Source: SAR324 cluster bacterium (GTDB lineage Bacteria > SAR324 > NAC60-12). Taken from it: a DNA stretch of 64,000 nucleotides. Shown here piece by piece: positions 20,339 to 46,268 of the stretch. The position numbers and the translations under genes were made by a program. The stretch spans positions 225 to 64,224 of the forward strand of contig JACNJW010000024.1 of the NCBI GenBank assembly GCA_014382365.1, written 5' to 3'. The notes under the pieces were generated by a model, which worked only from the letters and a program-made list of their open reading frames with translations, did not search any database and was not told where the DNA came from. The first letter of the stretch is position 1. Each line of letters opens with the position of its first letter.

Positions 20339-21199
20339 ATGATAATTCAGACACCGGCAAAAATAAATCCACTGCTCTATATTTTAAACAAACGTAAAGA
20401 CGCTTTCCATGAAGTGTATATGCATATGCTTCCGGTCAGTTTATTTGATAGAATAACTTTTTGCAAAAATGACGGACAGGGGTTAAATTTTCGGATACTT
20501 GGGGCTGACTTTTCTGAGCCTACTGAAGATAATCTGGTTGTCCGGGCAGTACGATCTTTTGAGCAGGTAAGTGGAATCACAGTGAACTTTGATATTTTAC
20601 TCGAGAAGAACATTCCCTCCGGTGCTGGACTTGGCGGAGGAAGTGGGAATGCTGCCGGTACTATTCAAGCTTTGAATTATTTATTTCGAAAATCACCGGA
20701 AAAAGTAGGTTTATTAGCAGAAAAAAATATTCAATCAATTGCAGCAGAATTAGGTTCTGACGTCCCTTTTTTTCTTAATCCAATTCCAGCTGAAATCAGC
20801 GGACGTGGTGAAAAGACAAAACCACTAAACAGCTATCCAAAACTCTTTCTGATTGTAATTAAACCACAGCTTTCAATCTCCACCAAAGAAGCCTACCAGA
20901 AATGCAATCCAGAAAACCAAAACAAGTTCCCCAAAATACACTCTCTGACTGATTTGAAGAATCATTTACATAACCAGTTTGAAAGCTCTTTGTTAACACA
21001 GTTCCCTGTCTTGTCTGAACTGAAGTCTAGATTGCTCAATTATGGTGCATTTGGTGCATTAGTTTCAGGGAGCGGTTCTGCCGTTTTTGGAATTTATAAG
21101 GATAATATACAGCAATTACAAGCATTTAAAGACCTGTCATGTCTTGCGAACAACGAAACTTTCATTTGCGAAAGCCTGGACTCATATCAATATTTTTGA
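20339..21199 (+). CDS. ispE: 4-diphosphocytidyl-2-C-methyl-D-erythritol kinase
   Basis: GHMP kinase motif PSGAGLGGGSGNAAG. Size 286 aa. Confidence 0.8.
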   Translation: MIIQTPAKINPLLYILNKRKDAFHEVYMHMLPVSLFDRITFCKNDGQGLNFRILGADFSEPTEDNLVVRAVRSFEQVSGITVNFDILLEKNIPSGAGLGGGSGNAAGTIQALNYLFRKSPEKVGLLAEKNIQSIAAELGSDVPFFLNPIPAEISGRGEKTKPLNSYPKLFLIVIKPQLSISTKEAYQKCNPENQNKFPKIHSLTDLKNHLHNQFESSLLTQFPVLSELKSRLLNYGAFGALVSGSGSAVFGIYKDNIQQLQAFKDLSCLANNETFICESLDSYQYF

Positions 21200-21897
21200 G
21201 CGAATATTTTTGCAAAACAAAATTATTAAAACTTCAGTTGCAACTTCTGGTTTTGGCTTTTTTATTTACCGGATGCAGTAGCATCCCTGATAGTTCCCCC
21301 AGAATCAGGCAGTACAGCAATAGTCAGACATGGAACAAAACAAATCCACGGATAAAAAAATACGTTCAGGTTTATAGCAACAATAGACATGTAAAAACCT
21401 GTTTAGATAAAGCTACTTCCAGTCGTTATCTGCATTACATTCATCGTGTTTTTTATAAATATGAATTGCCTCCTGAACTTGCACATTTGCCAATTTTAGA
21501 ATCATGTTTTGATACAAAAGCTGATTCAGGTTCAGCCAGAGGAATGTGGCAGTTCACAAAAGCAACTGCAAAAGATTATGGTTTAAAAGTCGGTTGGTTA
21601 GCAGATGATCGGCTTAACTGGCGAAAATCCACTGATTCTGCAGCTCGTTATTTAAAAAAACTCGGTGAGAGATTCAACCAAAATTGGGAACTGGCTCTGG
21701 CTGGTTATAATGGAGGGCCGGGTTATCTGGAGCGGCAAATAAAATCTCAAGGTACCCGAAACTTCTGGAAACTAAAATTACGAAAAGAGACTCATGAGTA
21801 TGTACCTAAATTTCTGGCAATGTTGAGGGTGGCACGAAAGAGATATCCTGAGCTTTATTTTCAGGGATCTCCTCGCGCATGGGCCACTTCAGGATAA
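21139..21897 (+). CDS. lytic transglycosylase (SLT domain) lipoprotein
   Basis: SLT catalytic motif ESCFDTKADSGSARGMWQF and AGYNGGPG. Lipobox LFTGCSS. The annotated ATG overlaps ispE by 61 nt, so the true start is probably a downstream non-ATG codon. Confidence 0.7.
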   Translation: MSCEQRNFHLRKPGLISIFLSEYFCKTKLLKLQLQLLVLAFLFTGCSSIPDSSPRIRQYSNSQTWNKTNPRIKKYVQVYSNNRHVKTCLDKATSSRYLHYIHRVFYKYELPPELAHLPILESCFDTKADSGSARGMWQFTKATAKDYGLKVGWLADDRLNWRKSTDSAARYLKKLGERFNQNWELALAGYNGGPGYLERQIKSQGTRNFWKLKLRKETHEYVPKFLAMLRVARKRYPELYFQGSPRAWATSG

Positions 21898-22058: not shown

Positions 22059-22562
22059 ATGGCAGATGAAGAGAGTGGGGGAGAAAGCAGCGGAGGTGGC
22101 AAAAAAAAGATGATAATTATTATCGTCGCTGTTGTTCTTTTGTTGGTCATTGGTATTGTAGTGTTTTTAATGATGTCCGGTGGAGAAGAAGAAGAATTAC
22201 CTGAAGAGGAAATACCTGTAACAGGCGCTGCGGAACCTCTCATGGAACCTATTTTTCTTCCGCTGGAAAGCTTTGTTGTTAACCTCAAAGATGGCAGACG
22301 TTTTCTAAAAACAACAATTCAACTCATGCTCAGTGAACCCGGTGCTGCGGCTTACCTCACTATACGCCTGGTTGAGGTTAAGGATATTGTACTGACAGAA
22401 TTGCAGGAATTATCGGTAGAAGATGTTAAGCAGTCTGATGCTCGGGAAGCACTGCGGCAACGTTTAATTAGTTCCATCAGTCGAATCTTTCCTTCTAAGC
22501 CGGAATGGGAAGATCCTGAACCAATTAGAAAAGTTTTATTTGAGGAATTTGTAATCCAGTGA
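22059..22562 (+). CDS. fliL: flagellar basal-body-associated protein FliL
   Basis: N-terminal TM (IIIIVAVVLLLVIGIVVFLM) then the FliL core (LESFVVNLKDGRRFLKTTIQL...). Confidence 0.7.
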   Translation: MADEESGGESSGGGKKKMIIIIVAVVLLLVIGIVVFLMMSGGEEEELPEEEIPVTGAAEPLMEPIFLPLESFVVNLKDGRRFLKTTIQLMLSEPGAAAYLTIRLVEVKDIVLTELQELSVEDVKQSDAREALRQRLISSISRIFPSKPEWEDPEPIRKVLFEEFVIQ

Positions 22563-23179
22563 GCTCAGCATTATATATGAAGAGCAGTGCTGCAGAAACT
22601 GGAGATATAATTATTTTGAATCCATTTAATCAGCATGATGTTTCTCTGTTGGAAGGCAGACCAGGAACGGCAATGATCATTAGTTCAAAGCTAATCTACA
22701 TAGTTCAATATTTATTCTCTGTAGCAAATATCTCAGTCAAGTTTACAATTATCCTTTTGCTTTTGCTGTCAGGATTATTTTTTTCTTCTTCTGCACTGAA
22801 TGCTCAAGAAGAGGTAGTCGAAGAAATAAGAGTAATCCGTGAGGGGCCGCCACCACTAGTAGCGCCACAGTATTTAGACCTTGGCACTTTTGTGGTAAAT
22901 ATGCCTGGTGACAAATATTTTCTTAAAAGCAGTATCCAACTGGCCTTCGAGAATGTTGCTGCCAAGGACTGGCTTCTTGCTCGATTGCCAATTGCTAAAG
23001 ATTTAGTCATTACACATCTAAACTCAATTACGATAGAACAGTTTGATAATATTAAAAACCGTACAGTAATTAAAAACGATTTACAGGTTCGTCTTAATTC
23101 TCTGTTTCCAAACAAATCTCCGTGGGAGGATGCAGTGCCTATTCGGAGAATACTATTCCTGGAATTCTATCGGCAATGA
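22559..23179 (+). CDS. FliL-like protein (second paralog)
   Basis: TM segment then LDLGTFVVNMPGDKYFLKSSIQLAFE..., parallel to the FliL core. GTG start overlaps the fliL stop (GTGA). Confidence 0.6.
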   Translation: MSSALYMKSSAAETGDIIILNPFNQHDVSLLEGRPGTAMIISSKLIYIVQYLFSVANISVKFTIILLLLLSGLFFSSSALNAQEEVVEEIRVIREGPPPLVAPQYLDLGTFVVNMPGDKYFLKSSIQLAFENVAAKDWLLARLPIAKDLVITHLNSITIEQFDNIKNRTVIKNDLQVRLNSLFPNKSPWEDAVPIRRILFLEFYRQ

Positions 23180-23322: not shown

Positions 23323-23781
23323 ATGGCAGAAGTAGAATCTATTGAGAATCTGGATGACTTGGATTGGTCCGATGTTGAAAGTGAGTTAAAAGCCAATAGA
23401 GACCAAATTCTTGCTGAAGTTAAGGGTGATCAAAACAAAGATCCAGATGCAGCTCAAGACGGTGACAGTACACAGGAACAAAGTGGTTTGGATTCTACCG
23501 GAAACACTCCAGTCTCAAGCGGTGACATAGACATCAATTTCCTATTTGATGTACAACTCTCAATAGTTGTTGAGGTGGGACGTGTTCAAATGCTGGTCAG
23601 TGAGCTGTTGGATCTGGATGAAGAGTCGATCATTGAACTTGACAGCATGGTAGGCCAGCCTCTGGACATTCGTGCCAATGACTTACTCGTTGCTCGTGGA
23701 GAAGTCATTGTAGTTAACGAAAAATTTGCGGTACGCATCACGGATATCATAAGTCCGGACAATCGTTTTGCTGCACTCTGA
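23323..23781 (+). CDS. fliN: flagellar motor switch protein FliN
   Basis: C-terminal SpoA/FliN domain (VQLSIVVEVGRVQMLVSELLDLDEESIIELD...LLVARGEVIVVNEKFAVRITDII) with an acidic N-terminus. Confidence 0.8.
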   Translation: MAEVESIENLDDLDWSDVESELKANRDQILAEVKGDQNKDPDAAQDGDSTQEQSGLDSTGNTPVSSGDIDINFLFDVQLSIVVEVGRVQMLVSELLDLDEESIIELDSMVGQPLDIRANDLLVARGEVIVVNEKFAVRITDIISPDNRFAAL

Positions 23782-23792
23782 GAGAATTTAAC

Positions 23793-25019
23793 ATGAGTAT
23801 TGCGAGACCAGCATGGCTCAAATTAGGAATAGCGCTGGTATTATGGGCAAGCTGCTTGATGCTTGCTTCCGCAGCAGAAATACGTACACTCAGAAGTATA
23901 GAAGTAGTTCCTCTTGACAATATTGAAGAGTTACAACTTGAATTTGATACAGATTTTTTAGGAGAGCCACTAGTTAATTTTGAAGCCGGCTCAATGAGCT
24001 TGCGTCTTAATTCTGCTAACACAGCTCCTTCGCTCCCCTTATTGACAATTTCAAAAGACAGTTCTATTACCAAAGCAGTTCGTGTAGTCCAAGTTCCAAA
24101 CACAAATATTGTGCACTTGGATATTCTGTTCAAGTCCTCACGGATGCAGTTGAAGCACCCAGTTATAACCCACTCTAACAATTTTTTACTGATTAGTTTG
24201 ATCAGCAACAGTACTGCCAGCCCCGCTCTTTCCAACTCTGAATTACTGACTGAAGAAATTGAAAACCGTGTCAAGACTGATCCTTCTTTCACATCAACCT
24301 TTGCTCAAGAATCAACTGAAGTGGCACCCTTGAATAAAATAAGTGACCTTCTACCAATGCCTGCACAAAATTGGGGAGAAACTATGCTGACTCTGGTTTT
24401 ATCTCTGTTATTCGTCCTATTGTTGATATATTTAATAGCGTTTCTATACAACCGTTTCCTGAGTGGAAGGTTTCCAGCTATGCAGGGAAATGTAAGAATC
24501 CGTCAGGTATCCAGTTATCATGTTGGTCCAAAGCAAAAAATTGTTGTTTTTGAAATGAACGGTCGAATTTTCGCTTGCGGAGTAACTTCTTCTTCCATAA
24601 ATTTGATTGCTGAATTACATGATGAGTCTGATCAGGAATTTCTAAATTCAATTGAGACAAACGAAAATACTAATGAAATAGACTTGGACCGTACAAGAGC
24701 TAATTTCATAAAAACTCTTGACCCTGCCAAAAATAAAGCCAAAGCTAATATGGAGGAGACTGTCGGTCATAATGAAAACTTAGCGACTTCCATAGAACTA
24801 GAAGGATCTGAAGTTGAGCTGTTTATCAAAACTGGCTCAGAAAAAACACAAAGCCAAGTTAACTCTAAGAAAAACAAAAATGAGTTGTCAACTTCTGTTA
24901 GACCTCTTATTTCAAATAAACTGGCAAACAGAGCCCAGATGACTCATGGAAGCCAAATGATGCTGGACTTTGCCAGCAAATTATCCGAACGTCTAAAATT
25001 TTTAAAACCAATTAAATAA
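23793..25019 (+). CDS. fliO: FliO-domain protein with long N-terminal periplasmic extension and C-terminal tail
   Basis: Signal peptide and ~190 aa of unknown domain. Then a FliO-like TM (LTLVLSLLFVLLLIYLIAFLYNRF) and core (VRIRQVSSYHVGPKQKIVVFEMNGRIFACGVT). Then ~150 aa of polar tail. It occupies the fliO position between fliN and fliP. Confidence 0.6.
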   Translation: MSIARPAWLKLGIALVLWASCLMLASAAEIRTLRSIEVVPLDNIEELQLEFDTDFLGEPLVNFEAGSMSLRLNSANTAPSLPLLTISKDSSITKAVRVVQVPNTNIVHLDILFKSSRMQLKHPVITHSNNFLLISLISNSTASPALSNSELLTEEIENRVKTDPSFTSTFAQESTEVAPLNKISDLLPMPAQNWGETMLTLVLSLLFVLLLIYLIAFLYNRFLSGRFPAMQGNVRIRQVSSYHVGPKQKIVVFEMNGRIFACGVTSSSINLIAELHDESDQEFLNSIETNENTNEIDLDRTRANFIKTLDPAKNKAKANMEETVGHNENLATSIELEGSEVELFIKTGSEKTQSQVNSKKNKNELSTSVRPLISNKLANRAQMTHGSQMMLDFASKLSERLKFLKPIK

Positions 25020-25024
25020 GTCTC

Positions 25025-25870
25025 ATGCAGCAGCCTGACATAAAGAGACTCTTAATCCGCTACTGGGCAAAAACCAGACGATGTTTTGATGACATCAGTC
25101 CGGTTGTTCTCTCAACCTCATCAATGAAAGTTGTACCGGCCAGTTTACTGCTTCTGTTTTGTATTGGCTCTCCACTATTTGCACAATCTCCAATTCCGGG
25201 AATCAACATCAGTGTTGATTCAGCCAGTTCTCCTCAGCAGGTTGCAACTACTTTGCAGATTGTTTTTTTACTGACTGTGCTCACAATGGCACCTGCCATT
25301 TTGATCATGACTACTTCTTTCACACGTTTCGTGATTGTGTTATCATTTTTAAGACAAGCCATTGGTACACCTCAGGCACCTTCAAATCAAATCGTTGTTG
25401 GACTGGCACTGTTTCTTTCTCTTTTTGTAATGATGCCGGTATGGGAAGAAGTCAATCAGATGGCTCTTGCTCCTTATCTGGAGGAAACCATTTCGCAGCA
25501 AGAATTTATGGACCGTGCGGTTGTACCAATTAAACGTTTTATGGGTAATTTTACACGTGAAAAAGATTTGGCTTTGTTTGTTCGTATTGCAAAAATAGAG
25601 CAGCCAAAAAACATTGAAGATGTTCCCATCTGGGTCATGATACCAGCTTTTGTGATTAGCGAACTGAAGGCCGCATTCCAGATTGGTTTTTTACTTTACG
25701 TGCCTTTTCTGGTAATCGACATGGTTATAGCCTCAATCCTGATGGCAATGGGCATGATGATGATGCCGCCAGTGATGATTTCTTTACCATTCAAGCTAAT
25801 GCTATTTGTGCTGGTAGACGGCTGGCATTTGATACTTGGTTCTATGGTAAAAAGCTTTATGGAATTTTAG
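25025..25870 (+). CDS. fliP: flagellar export apparatus protein FliP
   Basis: Conserved FliP core (PAILIMTTSFTRFVIVLSFLRQAIGTPQAPSNQIVVGLALFLSLFVMMPV). Confidence 0.9.
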   Translation: MQQPDIKRLLIRYWAKTRRCFDDISPVVLSTSSMKVVPASLLLLFCIGSPLFAQSPIPGINISVDSASSPQQVATTLQIVFLLTVLTMAPAILIMTTSFTRFVIVLSFLRQAIGTPQAPSNQIVVGLALFLSLFVMMPVWEEVNQMALAPYLEETISQQEFMDRAVVPIKRFMGNFTREKDLALFVRIAKIEQPKNIEDVPIWVMIPAFVISELKAAFQIGFLLYVPFLVIDMVIASILMAMGMMMMPPVMISLPFKLMLFVLVDGWHLILGSMVKSFMEF

Positions 25871-25902: not shown

Positions 25903-26175
25903 ATGACAGAAGCACTTGTAGTCTCAATTATGATTGAAGCAATGAGGATGGCCACACTGCTGGCTGCACCAATGTTGATTGGCGCATTAGTAGTTGGTTT
26001 GCTTGTTTCCATCTTTCAAGCTGTGACACAAATTCAGGAACAAACACTGGCTATCATTCCTAAAATGGGTGCAATAATGGTAGTTTTAGCAGTACTATTT
26101 CCCTGGCTCCTTTCACAAGCCACTTCGTATATGGCAGGTATATTCACTAATCTCCCCAGATTCATTGGCGGCTGA
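25903..26175 (+). CDS. fliQ: flagellar export apparatus protein FliQ
   Basis: 90-aa two-TM protein with FliQ-like sequence. Directly follows fliP. Confidence 0.8.
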   Translation: MTEALVVSIMIEAMRMATLLAAPMLIGALVVGLLVSIFQAVTQIQEQTLAIIPKMGAIMVVLAVLFPWLLSQATSYMAGIFTNLPRFIGG

Positions 26176-26382: not shown

Positions 26383-28884
26383 ATGATTAATTCTTCTGAT
26401 CCGGAATTTGAAAAAGAAGATGATCTTCAAGAAGAGATTATCGAAGTCCCAGAAAACATTATTGAGCCGCTTCCTGAAGATAAATCACTTGTCATCAGTG
26501 AAAATGTTTTCCCTGAAACTCTGCTCATAGTTCCCCTTTACGATCGGCCGCTTTTTCCAAAAATGCTGCTGCCGGTAATAATTTCTGATGAGAATTTAGA
26601 AAAAGAACTGCTTGAAGACTTAAAAGGACCAGTACGTTATGTTGGTTTGGTCTACAGCTATGAACCTGAAGCAACAAAAAACACAAATGATGAAGAAGTT
26701 CCTGATAAATTAGCTAAGATAGGAGCAGTTGGTCGAATTGTACAGGCTTCAAAACACGGCAACGATCCTCTACACATTATTGTACAGGTAATGGAGCGCT
26801 TTGAGATTATTGAAATTGTTGATGAAGATCCTGTTACTAAAGCAAAAGTAGAATATTTAGAAGAAATTGAAAGCAAAAAATCTGAAGAAGAATTAAAAGC
26901 CTTTTCCGTTTCGATCATAAACATGATTAAAGAATTGGTGCAGTTGAACCCTTTGTTTAAAGAAGAATTGGGTTTATTGATGGGGCGTATTAATCTCAAA
27001 GATCCTGCAACACTTGCAGATTTTGCAGCATCCATGACAACTGCTTCCGGAAAGGAACTGCAGGAAATACTTGAAACAAAAAGTATAAAAACACGAATTG
27101 AAAAAGCGTTGAATCTGCTGAGGCATGAACTGGAAGTAGCAAAACTACAGGTCAAAATTTCTCAGCGAGTTGAGGACAGGATGTCTCAGCAGCAACGAGA
27201 ATTTTTCTTGCGGGAACAACTGAAGGAAATTAAAAAAGAACTTGGTCTGACTAAGGAAGGTTCTGAGAGTGAGACAGAAAGATACGAAGCCCGCATAAAG
27301 AAACTAAAATTATCTGAAGAGGCCAAAGAACGTATTGATGAGGAACTGGAAAAATTACGTTTAATTGAACCTGCATCACCTGAATATAACGTAACACGAA
27401 CTTATCTGGACTGGCTGACAATTTTGCCATGGGGTATCTACAGCAAAGACTTTTATAATATACAGCGCGCAGCTCGAATTCTCGATCGAGATCATTACGG
27501 ACTAAAAGATGTTAAAGACCGCATTCTGGAACTTATATCTGTGGGAATAATCAATGGTGATTTGGCAGGTTCAATCGTATTACTTGTTGGACCTCCCGGC
27601 ACAGGCAAAACTTCGGTTGGACAATCTATTGCTAGAGCCATAGGCCGTAAGTTTTTTCGTTTTTCGCTTGGTGGCATGCGAGATGAAGCAGAAATAAAAG
27701 GGCATCGAAGAACCTATATTGGAGCACTTCCTGGTAAATTTATTAATGCAATCAAAACTTGCAAAACCTCAAACCCAGTAATAATGCTGGATGAAATTGA
27801 TAAAGTTGGTGCAAGTTTTCATGGTGATCCCGCTTCTGCTTTGCTTGAAGTTTTAGACCCTGAACAGAATAAAGACTTTCTTGACCACTATCTTGATGTT
27901 CGTTTTGACCTTTCAAAAGTACTTTTCATCTGTACTGCAAATCAAACAGACTCTATTCCTCCTGCATTACTAGACCGAATGGAGGTCATCCGGCTTTCAG
28001 GTTACATCCTTGAAGAAAAACTGGAGATTGCAAGAAAACATTTGTTACCAAAGCAACTTAAAACACATGGACTCAAAAAGGCTCAGTTTTCACTGCCAAA
28101 ACCAGTTCTACGTGAAATTATTGATGGCTATGCCCGTGAAGCAGGAGTCAGGAGTTTAGAAAATAATCTTAAAAAACTGTTGAGAAAATCTGCCAGAATA
28201 ATTGTAGAAAATGAAGTTGAACAAGTTAAAATTACTAAAGACGATCTTCCGAAAATGTTAGGAAGAAAGACTTTTGCAGAAGAATCACGCTACAAAAAAC
28301 CTAAAATTGGAGTCATAACCGGCTTGGCATACACCAGCGTCGGCGGTGCAACATTATTCATAGAGGCATCCAGTGTTGAAGCCAAAAATCCTGGATTCAA
28401 GCAAACCGGACAGTTGGGTGACGTGATGGTGGAGTCTACGGAAATCGCCTATACTTTCATCCGTTCCCTGGGAAGTACTGACGAAAAAATAAAGTCTTTC
28501 TTTGCACAAAATTTTGTACACCTGCATGTGCCTGCTGGTGCCACTCCTAAAGATGGTCCTTCTGCAGGAATCACTATGGCTTGTGCACTTCACTCTTTGG
28601 TCTCACAGGAAGCTATTATCTCAAATATTGCCATGACGGGGGAGCTGACACTAACTGGTTTAGTCATGCCGATAGGTGGAGTCAAAGAAAAAACAATTGC
28701 TGCAAGACGTGCCGGTATAACTCAATTAATTTTTCCTGCTGAAAATCAAAAAGATTTTGATGATTTAGATGATAGTATCAAAGTAAACATCACACCGTAT
28801 TTTGTCAAAACTTTTCAAGAAGTCCTGCCAATTTGTTTTCCTGAACTGAAAGGTACTAGTAAAAAGAGAATTCCGAAATCATAA
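26383..28884 (+). CDS. lon: ATP-dependent Lon protease
   Basis: LON N-domain. AAA+ Walker [10 protein letters not shown]. Proteolytic domain with [12 protein letters not shown] (catalytic Ser). Confidence 0.9.
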
Positions 28885-30515: not shown

Positions 30516-31889
30516 TTAGCGCTTTGTTTCATTTTCTAATAATTGAAGAATTTCTTTCCGTCGGCTGAAAATGGCATAATTAACTGCTGTTTTCTTCTCA
30601 AAATCAAAAATACTTGAATCCCCTCCATTATTCAGCAGTAAACCTACAGCACCTAATCTTCCACTGCCGGCAGCCAGCATCAATGCTGTTTGCCCTTTAT
30701 TATTCTGCATGTTTACTTCTGCACCACGTTTTAACAATTCCCATAAGGCCTGCAAATTTCCTCTCTCTGCGGCCCACATGAGAGCAGTCCAACCTTCATG
30801 AGTTCTGGCATTCAAATTTGCCCTGGCTTTTAATAGCATCGTCAGCATCGAATAATTTCCGTGAAATGCCGCCCACATCAGCGGAGAAAAATTACCCTTA
30901 TCCGGATTAGCACCATGACTCAACAATAATTTTGCGATTGAAACATCTTCCAGTGAAGTGGCCCAAACTAGTGGTGATTCATTCACATCGTCTACTATAT
31001 CTACATTTGCTCCATGAACAACCAGTAGTTTGACCAGTTCTTTATTTTGCAGTTTGACTGCCTGCATCAAAGGTGTGTATCCATTCTGATCCCTTAATTC
31101 CAAGTCAACACCTGCGTCAAGTAAGAGTTGGACTTTAACCAGGTTTTGTTTTTTAACTTCCAGCATCAGAGAACTATTTGTCGCTACTTGAGCAATTTCA
31201 TTTTTCTGCAATATCTTATTTTCTGCCAAAGTAGATGAGTTGTCTTTGAGGAGCACTTGCTCTATTTTTCCTGACTGATAATCCGGCCAGAGCAAAACCA
31301 GTAGCACAATGGAAACGCCAGTTAAACTAAAAAACATAATCCAACCAAACAGCATCCAGCTTGTATATTTTACTGGTACTGTTTCCACTACAGTACTTAC
31401 TGCGTCAGGCTGATTTTCAACTAGTTCTGGTTCCAGCATTTCAGCAGAATTTCGTTTTATTTGAATCTCTTCAATTAGTTGATTTCCTGAACTTGTCTGC
31501 TCTTTAGAAAAGAAGGGTGTTGAAAAACGAGAAAAATATTTTGGTTTAATCGTAAACGTGTCTTTTAACTGTTGTTGCTGTTCAATAATTTGTGGTCTTC
31601 CTTCAGAAATAGACAACAGAATTGCCGGGTCAAGCTGAGAACTTCCTGAAATTGTAATTGGGATATTTTGAAGGCGAACATGCCTGATAAGTAATCCCAG
31701 TAACTCCTGAGTATCATGGCTTATGACTTGCAGATTGTTTAAATCAAGATTAACCTTTTGTGAGTTACTTGAAGCTATACTCCCTTCAAGAGCATGCATT
31801 GCCGGCTGAATGTCAACATGCCTCAACTCATCAACTACTTTCAAAGTTGCAATTTGATTTTTTTCAGTGAGAACAATGCGATTCAACAT
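30516..31889 (-). CDS. STAS-like domain / single TM / ankyrin-repeat protein
   Basis: N-terminal ~95 aa resembles an anti-sigma-antagonist-like STAS fold (LKVVDELRHVDIQPAMHALEG...KVNLDLNNLQVISHDTQELLGLL). One TM (MLFGWIMFFSLTGVSIVLLVLLW). At least 5 C-terminal ankyrin repeats (TPLMQAVK..., SPLVWAT..., SPLMWAAFHGN..., TALMWAAERGN..., TALMLAAGSGR). Confidence 0.65.
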   Translation of the reverse strand: MLNRIVLTEKNQIATLKVVDELRHVDIQPAMHALEGSIASSNSQKVNLDLNNLQVISHDTQELLGLLIRHVRLQNIPITISGSSQLDPAILLSISEGRPQIIEQQQQLKDTFTIKPKYFSRFSTPFFSKEQTSSGNQLIEEIQIKRNSAEMLEPELVENQPDAVSTVVETVPVKYTSWMLFGWIMFFSLTGVSIVLLVLLWPDYQSGKIEQVLLKDNSSTLAENKILQKNEIAQVATNSSLMLEVKKQNLVKVQLLLDAGVDLELRDQNGYTPLMQAVKLQNKELVKLLVVHGANVDIVDDVNESPLVWATSLEDVSIAKLLLSHGANPDKGNFSPLMWAAFHGNYSMLTMLLKARANLNARTHEGWTALMWAAERGNLQALWELLKRGAEVNMQNNKGQTALMLAAGSGRLGAVGLLLNNGGDSSIFDFEKKTAVNYAIFSRRKEILQLLENETKR

Positions 31890-31999: not shown

Positions 32000-32998
32000 A
32001 TGGAAAAGTTTATGCGCAGATATCTTGTGCTGCAATGCATCTTTGCTTTAATAATGACTACTGCACAGGCAGAAGAAGCAGTTTTTTGGAAAGACAGGCA
32101 AATCTCTCAATTAGAACAGTTGACACCCAGTCTAGTTGAAGCAGTTCAAAGTATGCAGTCAAAGATTAGTTCAGTTGCAATTTCAAGCATTTCTTATGGA
32201 GATGCACTGCCAGCTAGTTTTCGCAAAGTTGCTAATGCCCGTTTACAACAAACACTAACTAATCTCCTTAAGTTAAAAGTCAGTATTTGCGAACCGTGCA
32301 GTCAAATTCGAACCGACATTTCCGGTAGTTTCCTTAAAATAAGCCGCGGAATTGCTGATGACAAATATCGCCGTGAAGCTGCCAAAGAATTGAATGTAAA
32401 GGGGTTTTTAGATATTGCTATATTTACCAGTGATGGAGACCAACTTTCAATTTCACTAAATGCATACGAGGCAAAAGATGGAGAAATTGTATTTTCTAAA
32501 ATAGTTACGGGTATGCCGCCCAAAAGTGGTTCCTACATTCACGCCTTTTACGGTAAAATGACAGTCCCTATTACATACACTAGCACATCAACTGGAAGCA
32601 GTACCTCAGTAGATCACCAGGCCAGAGTTTTGGGTGCAGAAAAGATGGTGAGACTTACAGATGACTGGAGTTTTACCGGAGGCGGAGCAATGTTGAGCGA
32701 TGATAATTCCAATCTAACAGAAAAATACGAAAAAGCAATTACAGGATTTTTAATTGATGGCACTATCAGTTATGATGTTTTCAATTTTGGTGGTGATCAG
32801 GTTGCATTATCTATGATTGCAGGACTGGGTATGATGACCGTGACACCTTTTAACAATCCTTCTTATTTCAAAACAGGTTTCAGTTTCTCAGTAGCAGAAC
32901 AATTAACTCTTAATTACCATTACCTGGCAATGCTGACAACTGATACAAGCGCCACAGCCTCTGGTGCATCAATTATTTCAATTGGCTGGAAATTCTAA
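32000..32998 (+). CDS. hypothetical secreted protein, probable outer-membrane beta-barrel
   Basis: Signal peptide (IFALIMTTAQAEEA). Alternating hydrophobic pattern toward the C-terminus. C-terminal ...SIGWKF ending in Phe, as in OM beta-barrels. Confidence 0.5.
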   Translation: MEKFMRRYLVLQCIFALIMTTAQAEEAVFWKDRQISQLEQLTPSLVEAVQSMQSKISSVAISSISYGDALPASFRKVANARLQQTLTNLLKLKVSICEPCSQIRTDISGSFLKISRGIADDKYRREAAKELNVKGFLDIAIFTSDGDQLSISLNAYEAKDGEIVFSKIVTGMPPKSGSYIHAFYGKMTVPITYTSTSTGSSTSVDHQARVLGAEKMVRLTDDWSFTGGGAMLSDDNSNLTEKYEKAITGFLIDGTISYDVFNFGGDQVALSMIAGLGMMTVTPFNNPSYFKTGFSFSVAEQLTLNYHYLAMLTTDTSATASGASIISIGWKF

Positions 32999-33006
32999 TT
33001 TCAATC

Positions 33007-34359
33007 TTGAATTGTAACCAAATAAGTCGTGTCATGAAACTAACTGGCAAATTTAAATCATTTAGATCATTTTTAGCATATTTTTTAGTCAGTCTTATAC
33101 TGCTGAATGTACTTAACGGCTGCAAAACTACAGAAGAAACTGTAGAACCTGAGGTAGATCTTCCGGTAAAGAAAAAAGTGCTCTTCAATCAACAAACTGA
33201 TGGCGGCAAAAACTCTGTAACTGTGATTGAAGAAACACAAGGAAACAAAAGACTGCTGCGTGTGGTTTTACAACGCGGAGAACTGCAGTCAAACTTAATT
33301 CATCCAATTGACAGTCCAAACTTTGTAATAGCAGTACCTCTTCAGGATGCAACCAGCAAACGTTTAAGTTTAAAAACTGCTGCCTTCGAACAAAGTCTCA
33401 AAGTTAATATCGATCAATTGTTGTCACGTTATCTTTCGCCGGAACGTTTTAACGTATCTGTGATCATAAATTGGGACAAAAAATTGCTGCAGGAAGTACA
33501 GTTAAAAAACTTGCCCCTCAATTCTGATGCAGCAAAAAGTGATACTGATGATGATTTAACTGATGACGGTACAATTTCAGAAAGCACAAAGCGAAACCAT
33601 GAATTAAAAGAAGCCCTTAAAACAATTCAGGTTAGTGTCTTGCTCGATAACACTTTACCTGAAACGCAGGAACAATTTTTACGAAAATTAATACCTGCAC
33701 AGGAATTCTATTTTGCAGAACGTGGTGATACTGTTTCAGTCGAACGGACATCTTTTCCAAAACCATTTTCTGACAGTATTGCTCCATACGAGGAACAGAT
33801 TGTCCGGAGAAAATTACATGAGTTATTGGTAAAATATATTGCCAAAACTGATTTTGTGGTCAATGTAAAATTTTCTTTGATCCAAAGCAATGAAGAAACT
33901 AAAAATGCTCCACCTGCGTCCAGTAATATAAAAATGGAGATAAACTTACTCCTTGATGATACGGTTCTGCCAACTGTAGACACTTTCCTGAAAGAAGCAG
34001 TTCCACTGGCAATTAATTTTGATGCAGAGCGCGGAGATTCTCTTGCAATTATTCGTAAAAGTTTTCCTGAACGTTCTGACAGTTCAATCTCTCCAGAACA
34101 ACGAAGTGCACTAAAAGATTATCGAGTAAAAATACTTGAAGCTTTCCAGACAGGAGACTATGTTGCAGGACTCGAATGGGCAGAAAAGGGGTTGAAAGTA
34201 GCAGTGAAACGAACTGACAAAATTTTTATCTTAAAAATGAAAGGGTCTTTGCATTTTCTACTCGAAGAAAAAGATGAAGCTTTGGAGATGTGGCAGCATG
34301 TTCAGCGTTTAGATCCAAAAGATGAAGAAGTACGTCAAATGTTAAACAATCTGGAGTAA
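33007..34359 (+). CDS. hypothetical lipoprotein with internally duplicated domain and C-terminal TPR-like motif
   Basis: Probable start at the ATG at 33034 (MKLTGKF...LILLNVLNGC lipobox). Two copies of a ~90-aa module containing AERGD (FYFAERGDTVSVERTSFP / INFDAERGDSLAIIRKSFP). Terminus ALEMWQHVQRLDPKDEEVRQMLNNLE. Confidence 0.55.
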   Translation: MNCNQISRVMKLTGKFKSFRSFLAYFLVSLILLNVLNGCKTTEETVEPEVDLPVKKKVLFNQQTDGGKNSVTVIEETQGNKRLLRVVLQRGELQSNLIHPIDSPNFVIAVPLQDATSKRLSLKTAAFEQSLKVNIDQLLSRYLSPERFNVSVIINWDKKLLQEVQLKNLPLNSDAAKSDTDDDLTDDGTISESTKRNHELKEALKTIQVSVLLDNTLPETQEQFLRKLIPAQEFYFAERGDTVSVERTSFPKPFSDSIAPYEEQIVRRKLHELLVKYIAKTDFVVNVKFSLIQSNEETKNAPPASSNIKMEINLLLDDTVLPTVDTFLKEAVPLAINFDAERGDSLAIIRKSFPERSDSSISPEQRSALKDYRVKILEAFQTGDYVAGLEWAEKGLKVAVKRTDKIFILKMKGSLHFLLEEKDEALEMWQHVQRLDPKDEEVRQMLNNLE

Positions 34360-34362
34360 GGA

Positions 34363-35580
34363 ATGAGAAAATATACCGTTTCGGCTGCAGAGACATTTCT
34401 TTACAGAGTGCTGTTCCTGTCTCTGCTCATTTTTTGTTTGGCAGCTAATGCATCTGCACAGGTCACTTCAGAATCTGAAGATGAAGTACAAGCAGAAGAT
34501 CCTTCACCCGAAAAAGCTGCTGAAGCTGCTGAAAAAAAACAAACCCTTGAAGAATTACTTGCTGTTCCGTTTAACCAGATCAAGAAAGAGCAGGAAGAAG
34601 AAATTAGCAAATTTACTGATGGAAAAAGCGGAGATCTTCCAAACAGTAGTAAAAATGGAGATGTTAAATTACCTCCACCTCCGGAACAAAGAAAAGTAGA
34701 GCACGATTTAGAAAAACAGTTGGACGTTATTTTTCGGGAAAAGTTACCAAAGGAGTACGTTGGAGTTTCAGTAAGCATTCGTTATATTCTGGAAACCGTA
34801 CCTGTCACTAAACAGGACAAGAATATCTCAAAAATTAAATTACCTGGATTTGACAACAATGTCTGGGTGCCGACACAAACTGAAAAAATTGTTGGTATCG
34901 TAAATCAAGTACGTCCATACACTACAATTTTTGCAGTTGTAAACACTCCAGTTTCGTTGTTCAATGTTGAAGTACTGAGACAAACTCTCGATGAAAATAT
35001 TAAATTTCTCAATTTAACCGGCCGCGATGTACTCAAAATGGTGCATGTGCCTTTTACAACTCCAGCAAAATCTTCTGTAAATACTCTTGATAATGCAGCT
35101 GTTGAACTGGTTGAGACTGAGAATGATGATGCTGAAGAAGAAAAGTCAGCAGATTCTGAACTTGATAATAGTACTGAAAAAGAAGCTGAGACTAAAGAGT
35201 ATGCAGGGACATTAAATACAGAAGAGCCGGATGCAGCTAATAAAGAAAATGCTGGAGAAAAAACAGAAGAAAATACTGACGCAGTTTTGGAATCTGATCC
35301 TGAACCCCGTCGAATAGACATGAAAGCCAAAGTTGAAACCACACGCTATTTGCTGCAGGCACGAAAAACATACATGCAGGAAGACTATGATGCAGCAATT
35401 ACAGCACTCCGTAGAGCAATAGAACTTAATCCATTTTCTTCACAAGCTTTTGCCATGCTGGGTTCAATCTACTATAGACTTGGATGGAACAGAATGGCAT
35501 TAGAGAACTGGCAGCATGCTCTTAAACTTGATCCAACAAATGAGGGTCTGAAAAAATATCTCATGCGTTTTTCCAGGTAA
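34363..35580 (+). CDS. hypothetical periplasmic protein, acidic linker and C-terminal TPR-like motif
   Basis: Signal peptide (LLIFCLAANASAQV). Acidic low-complexity region (DDAEEEKSADSELDNSTEKEAETKE...). The terminus ALENWQHALKLDPTNEGLKKYLMRF is paralogous to the terminus of the preceding gene. Start is 4 nt after the previous stop. Confidence 0.55.
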   Translation: MRKYTVSAAETFLYRVLFLSLLIFCLAANASAQVTSESEDEVQAEDPSPEKAAEAAEKKQTLEELLAVPFNQIKKEQEEEISKFTDGKSGDLPNSSKNGDVKLPPPPEQRKVEHDLEKQLDVIFREKLPKEYVGVSVSIRYILETVPVTKQDKNISKIKLPGFDNNVWVPTQTEKIVGIVNQVRPYTTIFAVVNTPVSLFNVEVLRQTLDENIKFLNLTGRDVLKMVHVPFTTPAKSSVNTLDNAAVELVETENDDAEEEKSADSELDNSTEKEAETKEYAGTLNTEEPDAANKENAGEKTEENTDAVLESDPEPRRIDMKAKVETTRYLLQARKTYMQEDYDAAITALRRAIELNPFSSQAFAMLGSIYYRLGWNRMALENWQHALKLDPTNEGLKKYLMRFSR

Positions 35581-35582
35581 GA

Positions 35583-37544
35583 ATGACAACCAAATTTTAT
35601 TTTTATCAAATTAATAACAAACCAATTAAGCTACCTGTTATTTTCCTTCAGATATTTATCTGCACACTATTTTTGTTATGGCTCAGTCCATTTACCTCTG
35701 TACAGGCACAGGAACGTGTCAAGTCACTCAGTATCCGTCAATTTGAAATAGAAGAAGCAATCCGTAACGGACTCAAATATTATCTTGAACCCAAAGATTA
35801 TGTTTTACGGGTAAAATTGTTTGGTCAGGAGCGTGCAGTAAGTATGGCAAATGAAACCCTTCCGGGATTTGGTCAACTTAACGAACCTCCGAGTACCAGT
35901 AGTGCTAAATACTGGCAAATTACTCGAATGCGCGTAGATTTGGTCATGCATAAAGAAGTTTCACCTTCAGTAAATACTTATATTGGAGAAATCGTTCCAA
36001 TCCTCAGTGGACTTGATTATGAGCGTGGAGATGAGCTAATTTTTGTTCCAATTTTACCCAGCGATCCATTTCCTGGACAACTGGGCTCTGCTGCTGAGGA
36101 TTTACCTGACCCACTGGCTAAAGCTGTTCCTGAAGAAGTTCCTGCCGCAAAAATATCAGAAAAAGATAAAAAGCCGACAGAGGAAGAGGTAGATCCTCTT
36201 ACCGAAGAGACTGGTGAACCAAAAGAAGAATCACCAATTTGGCAGAGAATGAATGACATTGAAAAAATTCTTGCTGGAATGCTGCTCTTTTTGATCCTCT
36301 TATTTTTCTGGGTTCTCTGGAAACTGAGAAGAGTAAAAGCCGAGTCAACTGAACAAGCTGATTTGCCGGCCCTGATGCCGCCGAATCAACATACTCCACA
36401 ACTGCCTGCAGCAACTCCGCATGGTTTTGTCTCCTTTCCTGATCCAAATGATAAACTACTGGAAAATCAAGATCAACAGGAATCACAACTGAATGATGCT
36501 CTGCTCACAGCAGATAATGAGCGTCTCATACAGGAGATTGTTAAGCAACTCATAGGTCGAGATGACTGGAAACAAGAATTAGTCCATGAAATGTCCCGGG
36601 ACAAGCAGTCGATGGATATGTTGACACAGCTTATTGCTATTTTGGGAATGAATACTTCCAGAAAACTTTTTACAGGAACAATTCCACAAAAAACATTTTT
36701 GGATCTGGAAAAATTGGCTGAAGATGCCTCTCCTTCTCCAGAGGATGAAAATGCTGTTTTAAAAGATGTGCAGAAGTTTTTTCTCACCAAGCAGTTGACA
36801 GATCCTGAACAGAACAAAACAAACCCCTTTGGCTTCATGGACCAGTTGGCAACAGCTCAAATAGGATTTCTGGTAAAAGATGAGCCTGCAAAAATAAAAG
36901 CTTTTGTATTTGGACGTATGGAAAGTGAAGAGGCCGCAGAGTTGTTACGTGAACTTCCAAAAGATGAGCGTACAAAAGTTGCCTTAGAACTTGGTAAACT
37001 TCATGAATTTCCTCTGGAACTGGTTGAAAAAATTGGTTACAACCTTGCAGAAAAAGCTCGGCATGTTCCGGATCAGGGAACAGTTGGAGTTGATGGAATA
37101 AAATTCATTGCTGATGTTCTTGGCGACTTAGACTACAATACAAGACAAGAATTGATCAACGGATTAAGAACATCAGATATAAAACTTAGCGAAAATATTG
37201 AAAGTCATTGTTTTATTTTTGAGTCGATACCTGATGTCCCAAAAGATATTTTGCTGGAAGTTGTGCGAAAATTAAAACCTGATGATGTTATTACTGCAAT
37301 TTCAGGTTCAACTTCAAAAATCAAAGAAGCTGCAATCATGTGTTTTCCTGAAAAAAGCCGTGCTGCGCTAGTTTCCTCTTTAAAAACTAAATCTCCGGAT
37401 TCAGAAGAAATTCGTTCTGCACGAAAATTATTTACACAATCTATGCGGGATATGGCTGATGCAGGTCGGCTTAATCTTCAGGAAGTGAATACAAATTTTG
37501 CTAACAGCAGCAAAGAGCCTGAATCCAAAAAAGGACAATCCTAA
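35583..37544 (+). CDS. inner-membrane protein with periplasmic N-domain and cytoplasmic FliG-like (rotor middle/C-terminal) domain
   Basis: Signal peptide (…LSPFTSVQAQE). ~190-aa periplasmic part with DYERGDELIFVPILP. TM (ILAGMLLFLILLFFWVLWKL+RRVK). Cytoplasmic part has armadillo-like segments matching the FliG pattern: GRMESEEAAELLRELPKDERTKVALELGKL resembles the FliG N/middle G.E.AA.LL..L pattern, and DGIKFIADVLGDLDYNTRQELINGL...IESHCFIFESIPDVPKDILLEVVRKLKPDDVITAISGSTSKIKEAAIMCFPEKSRAALVSSL resembles the FliG GG...LN.LD...MFVFEDI...LLREV...L..AL.G....L...IL.NMS.R.A..L tract. Confidence 0.55.
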   Translation: MTTKFYFYQINNKPIKLPVIFLQIFICTLFLLWLSPFTSVQAQERVKSLSIRQFEIEEAIRNGLKYYLEPKDYVLRVKLFGQERAVSMANETLPGFGQLNEPPSTSSAKYWQITRMRVDLVMHKEVSPSVNTYIGEIVPILSGLDYERGDELIFVPILPSDPFPGQLGSAAEDLPDPLAKAVPEEVPAAKISEKDKKPTEEEVDPLTEETGEPKEESPIWQRMNDIEKILAGMLLFLILLFFWVLWKLRRVKAESTEQADLPALMPPNQHTPQLPAATPHGFVSFPDPNDKLLENQDQQESQLNDALLTADNERLIQEIVKQLIGRDDWKQELVHEMSRDKQSMDMLTQLIAILGMNTSRKLFTGTIPQKTFLDLEKLAEDASPSPEDENAVLKDVQKFFLTKQLTDPEQNKTNPFGFMDQLATAQIGFLVKDEPAKIKAFVFGRMESEEAAELLRELPKDERTKVALELGKLHEFPLELVEKIGYNLAEKARHVPDQGTVGVDGIKFIADVLGDLDYNTRQELINGLRTSDIKLSENIESHCFIFESIPDVPKDILLEVVRKLKPDDVITAISGSTSKIKEAAIMCFPEKSRAALVSSLKTKSPDSEEIRSARKLFTQSMRDMADAGRLNLQEVNTNFANSSKEPESKKGQS

Positions 37545-41041: not shown

Positions 41042-41791
41042 ATGTTGGGAAAGAAAGTCATAAATTTAAAACAATACTTCTTGGTAGGCTTGTTTGTATC
41101 AGCATTTTTTTTGGCATTAAATACTACCACAGCATACGCAGAAGAACAGCCCATTGCCTTCAGTCATAAACTTCACACAGTACAAAACGGAATTGCCTGT
41201 CAATATTGCCACCTTTATGCACGCCGCTCTTTTTCATCAGGAGTTCCACCTGTCAGTACCTGTATCGGTTGTCATGGTCCCAAAGAACAAAAATTAGTGC
41301 AGCCTGACAGCAAAGAGGTCAATAAGATGCGAACTTTTTGGTCTGATAAAGAACCTATTCCATGGGTCAAAATACATGACGTACCGGATTTTGTTCGTTT
41401 CCCTCATAAAGAGCACATTAATGCCGACAGCAATCGATTACTGGATGATGCCGGAGCAGGATGTGACACTAAAAATGCACCTCGCAGTTTAGAATGCAAG
41501 TTGGCTCAGTTCAGGACTGGAGGTGACCAACGTTGTCTGGCCTGTCATGGAGATGTTCGTCAAATGGAAGTAATCACACAGGTTGATGAAAATTTTGGTA
41601 AAATGGGCTGGTGTATGGAGTGTCACCTGCAGGTGAAAGGTGCCAAAGAAAGGAAACGTACAGGAAGTACAATTGCCGGTTGGTATCACGCCAAAGAAAT
41701 GGACAAAAAACGTGAAGCTGCAATTGGATTAGTAAATGAAAAAGGTTATCACAACCCAAATATGCTTGACTGCTACACCTGCCATTATTAA
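41042..41791 (+). CDS. actA: alternative complex III subunit ActA, pentaheme cytochrome c
   Basis: N-terminal TM anchor and five CxxCH motifs (CQYCH, CIGCH, CLACH, CMECH, CYTCH). First gene of the actABCDEF series. Confidence 0.85.
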   Translation: MLGKKVINLKQYFLVGLFVSAFFLALNTTTAYAEEQPIAFSHKLHTVQNGIACQYCHLYARRSFSSGVPPVSTCIGCHGPKEQKLVQPDSKEVNKMRTFWSDKEPIPWVKIHDVPDFVRFPHKEHINADSNRLLDDAGAGCDTKNAPRSLECKLAQFRTGGDQRCLACHGDVRQMEVITQVDENFGKMGWCMECHLQVKGAKERKRTGSTIAGWYHAKEMDKKREAAIGLVNEKGYHNPNMLDCYTCHY

Positions 41792-41806
41792 AGCTAAGAG
41801 AGAAAA

Positions 41807-44779: not shown

Positions 44780-44810
44780 CAAAATGATTCAAGGAGCATA
44801 CGGAGCATAA

Positions 44811-46268
44811 ATGGGAACAACTGCGGAATATAACGCAACCGCCGGAAAGGTGGTCATTGATGAGCATCAAGGGCATCCTGGAATCAAGGCTACCACCTTG
44901 GATTACGGACAGATTAATGATGAGATGCTGGCAATGCTGGACAAGCCGCGTCCTTCATACTACCTTTTGCTGCTTGGTTTTTTAATGGCTTTGGGACTTG
45001 GTGCATTGAGTCTGGCTATTCAAGTAGATGTAGGTATTGGCTACAGCGGAATCAGTCATCCTATTGCCTGGGGTTTTTATATTACAAACTTCGTTTTCTG
45101 GATTGGAATTGGCCACGCAGGAACTTTGATATCTGCAGTATTTTATCTGACTCGAGCACCATGGAGAACAGCAATTTACCGCAGTGCAGAAGCCATGACA
45201 GTTTTTGCCGTGATGACAGCAGGGCTTTTCCCCTTGCTGCACACAGGACGCCCATGGCTGGCCTACTGGTTGATTCCATATCCAAATGAAAGGATGCTCT
45301 GGGTCAATTTCAAGTCTCCACTTGTCTGGGATGTCTTTGCAGTCACAACCTACATGTCCGTTTCAATCATGTTTTTCATGCTGGGTTTGATTCCGGACAT
45401 GGCAATTTTACGTGATGAAGCAATTCGAAAAGGTAAAAAACTAAAAGCTCTGATTTATGCCCCAATGGCTTTAGCCTGGCGAGGTACTAACCATCAGTGG
45501 ATACATTACATGCGTGGATATTTAATTTTTGCCGCATTGGCAACACCGCTTGTATTTTCGGTACACTCCATTGTTTCCTGGGACTTTGCAATGTCTTCTG
45601 TTCCAGGTTGGCACACCACCATCTTTGCACCATATTTTGTAGCTGGAGCAATTTTTTCCGGACTTTCCATGGTAATGACTGTTTTGATTCCAATGCGAGC
45701 AGTCTTTGGTTTACAGGATTACATCACAAATCATGTAATACAAAGCGTTTCAAAGATGATTATTTTTACTTCAATGATTGTCGGCTACGCTTATGCTTCT
45801 GAATTTTTCATTGGTTATTACAGCGGAAGTCCTTTTGAGCGGGCGATTTTTTACTACCGTCCTTTTGGTGAAATGGAAAGTTGGACTTTATTAGGAGAAA
45901 ATCAAATCAACTTTCCACAAATTGCATTTTGGCTGATGGTTTTTTGCAACGTGATTGCACCAATACCTCTCTGGCGCTGGAAAATCAGAAACAATGCCTT
46001 AGCAGTTTGGATAATCACAATTTTTGTCAATATTGGAATGTGGTTTGAGCGTTTTAATATTGTCGGCAGTTCATTACAACACGAATACGATCCTGCAGCC
46101 TGGGGTGAATACTGGCCAACTGTAGTTGAAGTAGGCATCACTGTTGGCAGTTTCGGATTCTTTTTTACACTTTTTACTTTATTTGCCAAGAGTTTACCAC
46201 CAATGGCAATAATGGAGTTGAAAGAAGCAACTAATCCTCCTATGAGAAACGCTGCAAAAGGTCACTAA
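44811..46268 (+). CDS. actC: alternative complex III subunit ActC (NrfD/PsrC-like polytopic membrane, quinone-interacting)
   Basis: 485 aa, about 10 TM helices, NrfD-family-like. Position in the operon. Confidence 0.8.
   Translation: MGTTAEYNATAGKVVIDEHQGHPGIKATTLDYGQINDEMLAMLDKPRPSYYLLLLGFLMALGLGALSLAIQVDVGIGYSGISHPIAWGFYITNFVFWIGIGHAGTLISAVFYLTRAPWRTAIYRSAEAMTVFAVMTAGLFPLLHTGRPWLAYWLIPYPNERMLWVNFKSPLVWDVFAVTTYMSVSIMFFMLGLIPDMAILRDEAIRKGKKLKALIYAPMALAWRGTNHQWIHYMRGYLIFAALATPLVFSVHSIVSWDFAMSSVPGWHTTIFAPYFVAGAIFSGLSMVMTVLIPMRAVFGLQDYITNHVIQSVSKMIIFTSMIVGYAYASEFFIGYYSGSPFERAIFYYRPFGEMESWTLLGENQINFPQIAFWLMVFCNVIAPIPLWRWKIRNNALAVWIITIFVNIGMWFERFNIVGSSLQHEYDPAAWGEYWPTVVEVGITVGSFGFFFTLFTLFAKSLPPMAIMELKEATNPPMRNAAKGH

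Follow-up and report, generated by a model that had tools for sequence, protein, structure and literature searches.

The present analysis concerns the fliO gene of a SAR324 cluster bacterium, located on contig JACNJW010000024.1 of GenBank assembly GCA_014382365.1, of which positions 225 to 64,224 were analyzed; this whole stretch of 64,000 nucleotides (nt) is referred to as the window, and all coordinates are those of the window. The open reading frame (ORF) occupies 23793-25019 on the plus strand, runs from ATG to stop and encodes 408 amino acids (aa), exactly where an earlier note on this DNA had placed a FliO protein of unusual length. It begins 11 nt after the stop codon of fliN, and a purine-rich GAGAG resembling a Shine-Dalgarno sequence lies upstream of its start. 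In public databases an identical protein is named 'flagellar biosynthetic protein FliO [SAR324 cluster bacterium]' (NCBI, from a SAR324 metagenome-assembled genome, MAG).

The segments that identify the protein as FliO are located in its middle. A transmembrane helix (aa 194-224; 24372-24464, plus strand) was modelled as a helix by AlphaFold2 (AF2) with a predicted local distance difference test score (pLDDT) of ~80, and is followed by a cytoplasmic beta core (aa 225-277, VSSYHVGPKQKIVVFEMNGRIFACGVTSSSINLIAEL; 24465-24623, plus strand). Pfam PF04347 (FliO) scored 41.4 bits over aa 218-292 (cut-off 22) and TIGR03500 (FliO equivalog) 58.6 bits over aa 205-275 (cut-off 55.25), so that the FliO identity proposed for the central region was supported by both family models. 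Both strings quoted earlier, LTLVLSLLFVLLLIYLIAF (aa 199-217) and VRIRQVSS...FACGV (aa 234-264), were found, and the presence of a FliO-type transmembrane segment and core within one 408-aa protein was confirmed. Relatives were scanned in two sets (20 and 14 proteins), and all of them matched the FliO family hidden Markov model (HMM). Using hhalign, a 20-member family profile was aligned with E. coli FliO 19-95 over aa 199-277 (Prob 94.8%, E 5e-8). With top-residue frequencies of 0.61 and 0.63, respectively, the transmembrane helix and the core are the most conserved segments of the family, and three strands were placed by AF2 at 249-275 in the core. The same two elements have been described as the conserved core of FliO in a recent survey (Andrianova et al., PNAS 2025; PMC12403147) and as the functionally important part of the protein (PMC2947984). 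The fliN-fliO-fliP-fliQ setting expected of FliO is also present, both here and in related genomes.

The topology of the protein is predicted to be N-out/C-in, with aa 28-193 in the periplasm, a single transmembrane helix, and the core and tail in the cytoplasm; the net charge, 0 over the 15 residues before the helix and +4 over the 20 residues after it, fits this arrangement, which has been demonstrated for Salmonella FliO by PhoA and GFP fusions (PMC2947984). The first 27 residues (MSIARPAWLKLGIALVLWASCLMLASA, followed by A-E; 23793-23873, plus strand) lead through a basic n-region and a hydrophobic core to an AxA-type site, and were modelled as a helix by AF2. Cleavage of this putative signal peptide is expected after A-S-A on the basis of the sequence, and the domain that follows would be periplasmic even if a signal anchor stayed uncleaved. 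The signal peptide and the large periplasmic N-terminal extension that had been noticed earlier were thus recovered, as the A-S-A/A-E-type site is followed by ~165 aa before the transmembrane helix. In comparison, the periplasmic part of E. coli FliO is 18 aa long, and its cytoplasmic tail 26 aa as opposed to ~130 aa in the SAR324 protein. The FliO proteins of Salmonella and E. coli (121-125 aa) otherwise resemble the SAR324 protein in their homologous transmembrane helix and beta core, in the position of the gene between fliN and fliP and, for Salmonella, in the expected topology (PMC2947984). The earlier statement that FliO is normally ~100-150 aa long is correct for such model organisms but not in general, since lengths from 80 to >500 aa were recorded across >30,000 genomes (PMC12403147).

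An unusual length compared with the 121-aa FliO of E. coli is the sole support for an assembly or sequencing artefact in which a missed frameshift or read-through merged a short fliO with a periplasmic accessory gene upstream of it, a frameshift between two genes having been suggested in the earlier note. More than 100 full-length homologues from independent samples, with identities from 63% to 47%, were found to be 401-409 aa long, most of them exactly 408 aa, and the identical protein is present on 12 contigs. Conservation spans the full length of the alignments and is unbroken through the junction of the N-terminal part and the transmembrane helix. A genome scan using one genome per species yielded 36 related loci, each of which belongs to a MAG or an isolate; their labels are SAR324, Candidatus Lambdaproteobacteria, 'Deltaproteobacteria/Proteobacteria bacterium' or simply 'bacterium'. 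In all 26 loci that were fully translated fliO was a single uninterrupted ORF with the same layout. No separate short fliO was found between fliN and fliP. As a single ORF is kept in more than 100 homologues and in the genome loci, a frameshift or sequencing error is excluded, and the probability that we would assign to any such artefact is negligible. The gene is a genuine, phylum-conserved long form of FliO.

A shorter subgroup of 314-341 aa was also observed (loci L029-L037, from Lambdaproteobacteria and unclassified MAGs). These proteins keep the N-terminal beta domain, the transmembrane helix, the core and the C-terminal motif described below, and have neither the conserved linker helix (…PSTF) nor most of the tail; in most of their loci fliP is not immediately 3' of fliO.

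A fusion with FliZ, which had been raised as another explanation for the length of the protein, was examined and rejected. The NCBIfam FliZ models PRK13415 and PRK13414 scored 29.9 and 23.6 bits, far below their cut-offs of 242 and 306, and their matches were confined to aa 198-334, on the FliO core, with none on the N-terminal domain. These weak matches on the transmembrane helix and core arise because Bacillus FliZ is itself a FliO homologue. B. subtilis FliZ also shares a signal sequence with the SAR324 protein, and its extracytoplasmic N-terminal part is short; the equivalog cut-offs are not reached, however, and the N-terminal extension has no similarity to it. As the N-terminal domain is probably AMIN-type (see below), a fusion with some other upstream flagellar accessory gene is not supported either, and the long form probably originated by ancient fusion with a periplasmic targeting domain rather than with a flagellar gene.

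The N-terminal domain (aa 28-138, ~110 aa, all-beta; 23874-24206, plus strand) had been described as of unknown fold. Structure prediction points instead to an AMIN-type beta sandwich, a feature delimited here by AF2, Foldseek and hhalign. In the AF2 model based on the full-length alignment, an all-beta domain was predicted at aa 30-138 with a pLDDT of ~80, and the domain alone, modelled from 20 diverse sequences, gave a pLDDT of 92.7, a predicted template-modelling score (pTM) of 0.85 and ~9 strands. When both models were compared with the PDB using Foldseek, the same top three entries were obtained, namely 4aqz (the B2, or AMIN, domain of N. meningitidis PilQ; query-based template-modelling score, TMq, 0.67), 4av2 (a PilQ model; TMq 0.64) and 4bin (E. 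coli AmiC; TMq 0.66), and a model of M. xanthus PilQ (3jc8; TMq 0.66) was found lower in the list. AmiC carries the archetypal AMIN domain. The AMIN entries had a root-mean-square deviation (rmsd) of 2.7-3.9 Å (2.7-3.6 Å for the top three) with template-modelling scores of 0.64-0.67, as against ~8 Å or more for the other matches. A small heat-shock-protein fold, to which many Foldseek matches belonged, was rejected with an rmsd of 9-14 Å. Based on these models, aa 28-138 is predicted to have the AMIN fold, that is, the beta sandwich known from AmiC and PilQ, with its two four-stranded sheets.

Between this domain and the membrane lies a periplasmic linker of ~55 aa (24207-24371, plus strand), recognized from the alignments and from AF2 secondary structure. 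It contains a conserved helix, placed by AF2 at aa 149-162, with the pattern ...LTxEIExRVK..(F)PSTF, and continues as a variable spacer up to a pre-membrane D-W; residues 171-193 of the spacer show little conservation (top-residue frequency 0.26).

Sequence comparison gave weaker evidence for AMIN than structure prediction, in the same direction. A profile of the N-terminal domain was constructed from 28 sequences, including long and short family variants, and compared with an AmiC-AMIN profile of 21 AmiC relatives (48-100% identity, all annotated as PF11741 in Pfam). The hhalign alignment comprised 83 in-register columns (Prob 64%, E 6.4e-5, score 30.2), while the reversed AMIN profile scored 13.6 and 30 column shuffles scored 10.4±2.2 with a maximum of 16.3. 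Against a single AmiC AMIN sequence a profile reached a Prob of only 6.5%, which is too weak alone. The identity between the domain and the AMIN domains of AmiC and PilQ is 13-15%. Sub-threshold matches to Pfam AMIN (PF11741) were obtained for two relatives (14.2-14.4 bits, E ~0.04), and the one in P0142 (aa 37-135) spans model positions 2-100 of 101. On these grounds, the sequence similarity to AmiC-type AMIN appears weak but real.

Other searches were less informative. The full-length family profile matched PDB sequences only at noise level (METTL6, E 1.5), and a profile search with the diverse N-domain alignment gave no match at E≤1, with members of the family itself likewise missed. Four giant repetitive proteins (P0126, P0151, P0153 and P0154) were rejected as homologues of the N-terminal domain, as only short stretches were matched; in P0126 the scores of a short NFEEGS-like repeat add up in the search.

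FliO proteins with an AMIN domain have been reported previously. In the survey, lineage-specific N-terminal extracytoplasmic AMIN or LysM domains of FliO are described, with AMIN-FliO present in Nitrospinota, Myxococcota, Deferribacterota, Campylobacterota and Bdellovibrionota (PMC12403147); SAR324 is not named in its main text or in the portions of its dataset that were examined. As described there, the AMIN domain of Campylobacter jejuni FliO corresponds to about codons 21-118 and is required to restore FlhB levels and for chick colonisation, and its deletion leaves amphitrichous flagellation only partly restored (PMC12403147). The SAR324 protein, as modelled, presents the layout of these proteins, namely an N-terminal AMIN, a transmembrane helix and the FliO beta sheet in one polypeptide, and agrees with the published description of FliO from C. 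jejuni and other phyla in having a signal sequence, AMIN, a transmembrane helix and, in the cytoplasm, a small beta sheet, as well as in being encoded beside fliN (C. jejuni has a fliNO promoter) (PMC12403147). It differs from AMIN-FliO as described in the same source in that its domain has diverged too far to be recognized by the Pfam AMIN model, and the SAR324 protein has in addition the ~55-aa linker, which includes a conserved helix, and a ~130-aa tail with a conserved C-terminal motif. The predicted domain also resembles the AMIN domains of AmiC (4bin) and PilQ (4aqz, 4av2 and 3jc8) in fold, in predicted periplasmic location and in N-terminal position within a protein of an envelope machine; unlike these, it is located on an inner-membrane export-gate chaperone and not on an amidase or a secretin.

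Several observations weigh against an AMIN-FliO assignment. The window protein did not match PF11741 (gathering score 20.5 bits) even at E≤10, none of the ~40 relatives scanned passed the threshold, and the short variants were unmatched. The hhalign probability for AMIN is just 64%, and the alignment covers ~70% of the domain. A HMMER search of 1.84 billion representatives with the N-domain profile returned only 35 proteins, essentially all with FliO-family architecture and giant repeat proteins as the exceptions, and no AMIN protein outside the FliO family. In addition, the FliO beta core was modelled at low confidence (pLDDT 45-52), and the AMIN-deletion phenotypes reported for C. jejuni are modest (PMC12403147).

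Some of these observations would also be expected if the N-terminal domain only resembled AMIN by convergence and did not bind peptidoglycan, in which case it might dock to the periplasmic domain of FliP, FliF or a lineage-specific scaffold, or act in a chaperone-like manner. The failure to pass Pfam AMIN and the restriction of the domain family to these FliO proteins are consistent with convergence, as are the modest Foldseek E-values (6.7e-4 to 8e-3) and the occurrence of small heat-shock-protein and PflA-type beta-sandwich entries lower in the Foldseek list. However, the AMIN entries are the sole matches that combine an rmsd of ~3 Å with a template-modelling score of at least 0.64, the profile-profile score lies ~9 standard deviations above the shuffles and in register with AmiC AMIN, and the position of the domain, after a signal peptide and ahead of the transmembrane helix, is that of AMIN-FliO in the published description (PMC12403147). 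Convergence is therefore considered unlikely, if still deserving some weight. The N-terminal domain appears to be an AMIN-type module that has diverged strongly and is restricted to the FliO family studied, and the gene is probably the FliO of a SAR324 cluster bacterium with AMIN-FliO architecture, a judgement that extends to the topology given above and to the mechanism proposed below.

The cytoplasmic part beyond the core (24624-24944, plus strand) was delimited from the AF2 model and the family alignment, and consists of a short helix (aa 298-308, RANFIKTLD) and, beyond it, a disordered region of low complexity. The polar tail announced in the earlier note is indeed rich in N/E/K/T/S and predicted to be disordered (pLDDT 27-45), and its length is ~130 aa rather than ~150 aa. 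Across the family the tail is length-variable, with a top-residue frequency of 0.23 and 33% gaps, and it is much shorter in the 314-341-aa relatives. The last ~24 residues (aa 385-408, ...DFASKLSERLKFLKPIK; 24945-25019 including the stop codon, plus strand) form a conserved C-terminal motif according to the alignments, with a top-residue frequency of 0.56 (compared with the values of 0.61 and 0.63 for the transmembrane helix and the core), and an AF2 helix at 388-401. The motif, which is conserved across the phylum, can be written F-A-x-K-L-x-x-R-L-K-x-L-K-P-I. The C termini of all 27 family members examined are variants of F-[AS]-x-[KE]-L-x-x-[KR]-[LV]-K-x-L-K-P-I-x, the short variants retaining F[AS]xELxxKVKxLKPID; the motif was noted at loci L015-L037. 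F393, L397, L404 and P406 do not vary among 20 diverse relatives, and K402, K405 and I407 hardly do; F403 is invariant only among closer relatives.

Along the motif the hydrophobic residues recur at i, i+4, i+8, i+11, with Lys/Arg on their flanks, which suggests an amphipathic docking or membrane-surface helix. As judged by eye, the C terminus of E. coli FliO (DFQSVMKNLLKRSGRS) bears a loose likeness to the SAR324 motif (DFASKLSERLKFLKPIK), and on this basis the motif may be an ancestral C-terminal helix of FliO that was displaced by an inserted disordered region. To our knowledge, no such C-terminal docking motif has been described for FliO. The abstract, the structural-diversity section and the term matches of PMC12403147 contain no mention of one. 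The novelty of the SAR324 protein may lie in the strong divergence of its AMIN domain and in a disordered tail that ends in a conserved motif.

The gene belongs to a conserved block on the plus strand, SLT-fliL-fliL-fliN-fliO-fliP-fliQ, whose order is kept in most of the related loci. The block is headed by an SLT lytic transglycosylase (21139-21897; Pfam SLT, E 7.9e-21) and continues with two fliL paralogues (22059-22562 and 22559-23179; Pfam FliL, E 3.9e-18 and 3.2e-10 for the pair), fliN (23323-23781; Pfam FliMN_C, E 3.3e-21), which lies upstream of fliO in the same operon, and, downstream of fliO, fliP (25025-25870; Pfam FliP, E 4.1e-81), whose product is a FliO client in Salmonella, and fliQ (25903-26175; Pfam Bac_export_3, E 5.7e-25). 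The fliL, fliN, fliP and fliQ neighbours were all above their Pfam thresholds. In every related locus that includes that flank fliN adjoins fliO, and fliP is immediately 3' of fliO in 28 of the 36 loci.

Some further features of the block were noted. The tandem fliL paralogues overlap by 4 nt and are kept as a pair across SAR324 loci. The second of them, as listed, starts with GTG and encodes 206 aa with a long N-terminal part ahead of its transmembrane segment; its real start may lie further downstream. The fliP ORF as listed encodes 281 aa, ~80 aa of which precede the FliP domain. In related loci the tblastn matches to fliP mostly begin 40-150 nt past the fliO stop, and up to ~500 nt, and the true start of fliP is probably an internal Met that opens a typical signal peptide, MKVVPASLLLLFCIGSPLFAQSP (MKVVPASLLLL). 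A gene for Lon protease (26383-28884, plus strand; judged by its sequence) directly follows fliQ, in the place of fliR-flhB. Most of the SAR324 relatives closest to the window (L002-L018) likewise have Lon after fliQ, and it was not detected there in more distant loci. No fliR, flhB or flhA is present in the window.

A second flagellar-like block was found at 33007-37544 on the plus strand. It consists of a FliF-like ORF of 450 aa (33007-34359) with a weak YscJ_FliF_C match (E 4.5e-6), a tetratricopeptide-repeat (TPR) protein (34363-35580) and a FliG-like ORF of 653 aa (35583-37544), in which FliG_M and FliG_C are confined to the last ~230 aa, so that this protein would be a FliG with an N-terminal extension of ~420 aa. 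The ORF upstream of the FliF-like gene (32000-32998) had a weak match to an outer-membrane-protein (OMP) beta-barrel. Elsewhere in the window, a 457-aa ankyrin-repeat protein is encoded on the minus strand (30516-31889), such proteins being uncommon in free-living bacteria, and an Alternative Complex III-like operon (41042-48733, plus strand) comprises genes for a multihaem cytochrome c, a molybdopterin/4Fe-4S subunit, an NrfD-like protein, ActD and a cytochrome c.

With fliR, flhB and flhA lacking from the window, its FliF-like and FliG-like genes atypical in size, and FliO reported in non-flagellar contexts in the literature (PMC12403147), the protein could be imagined as a FliO homologue repurposed for a non-flagellar function, as in some non-flagellated organisms or in virulence type III secretion systems (T3SS). 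The gene is nonetheless embedded in the conserved fliL-fliL-fliN-fliO-fliP-fliQ block, all of whose members flanking fliO passed their Pfam thresholds, and we consider repurposing very improbable.

For a flagellar FliO of AMIN-FliO architecture, the following mechanism is proposed, mostly by analogy with characterized proteins. The signal peptide would export aa 28-193 to the periplasm. The transmembrane helix and core would work as they do in Salmonella, where FliO promotes the stability of FliP and the assembly of the FliPQR gate (PMC2947984, PMC5542435); they would serve transiently as a scaffold or chaperone, stabilising FliP and helping the FliPQR export gate to assemble. According to PMC12403147, the AMIN domains of AmiC and PilQ bind septal or polar peptidoglycan and localise their host protein. 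If AmiC, PilQ and C. jejuni FliO are a guide, the AMIN-like domain may bind peptidoglycan, which it would reach via the ~55-aa linker, and this contact could confine the nascent export gate to the flagellum site, probably the pole, or stabilise it there. The disordered tail, in turn, might offer the C-terminal amphipathic helix to a partner in the cytoplasm or to the surface of the membrane. The lytic transglycosylase that opens the gene block is in keeping with local remodelling of the cell wall where assembly takes place, as an argument from gene context only.

A more ambitious view, which we consider quite unlikely, would make FliO a three-part coupling device rather than a gate chaperone alone, in which a highly diverged AMIN reads a peptidoglycan landmark in the periplasm, the core nucleates FliPQR in the membrane, and the C-terminal motif of the long disordered tail serves as a short linear motif that recruits a partner from the cytoplasm. 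Candidates would be FlhA/FlhB, the sorting platform that contains FliN, or a polar landmark of the FlhF/FlhG kind. If this were true, a single protein would connect the position in the cell wall with the export gate and with the machinery in the cytoplasm.

SAR324 is an abundant, mostly uncultured deep-ocean lineage, to whose phylum the AMIN-FliO architecture would be extended by this protein. The extension of known biology is modest, and the gene is otherwise ordinary, as it already carries the annotation fliO and its combination of domains has been published for other phyla. Since the SAR324 AMIN has diverged past the reach of Pfam, domain surveys would score such proteins as 'FliO plus unknown extension'. 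The cytoplasmic contacts of FliO are still poorly understood, and a testable handle on them is provided by the motif conserved at the C-terminal end of the disordered tail.

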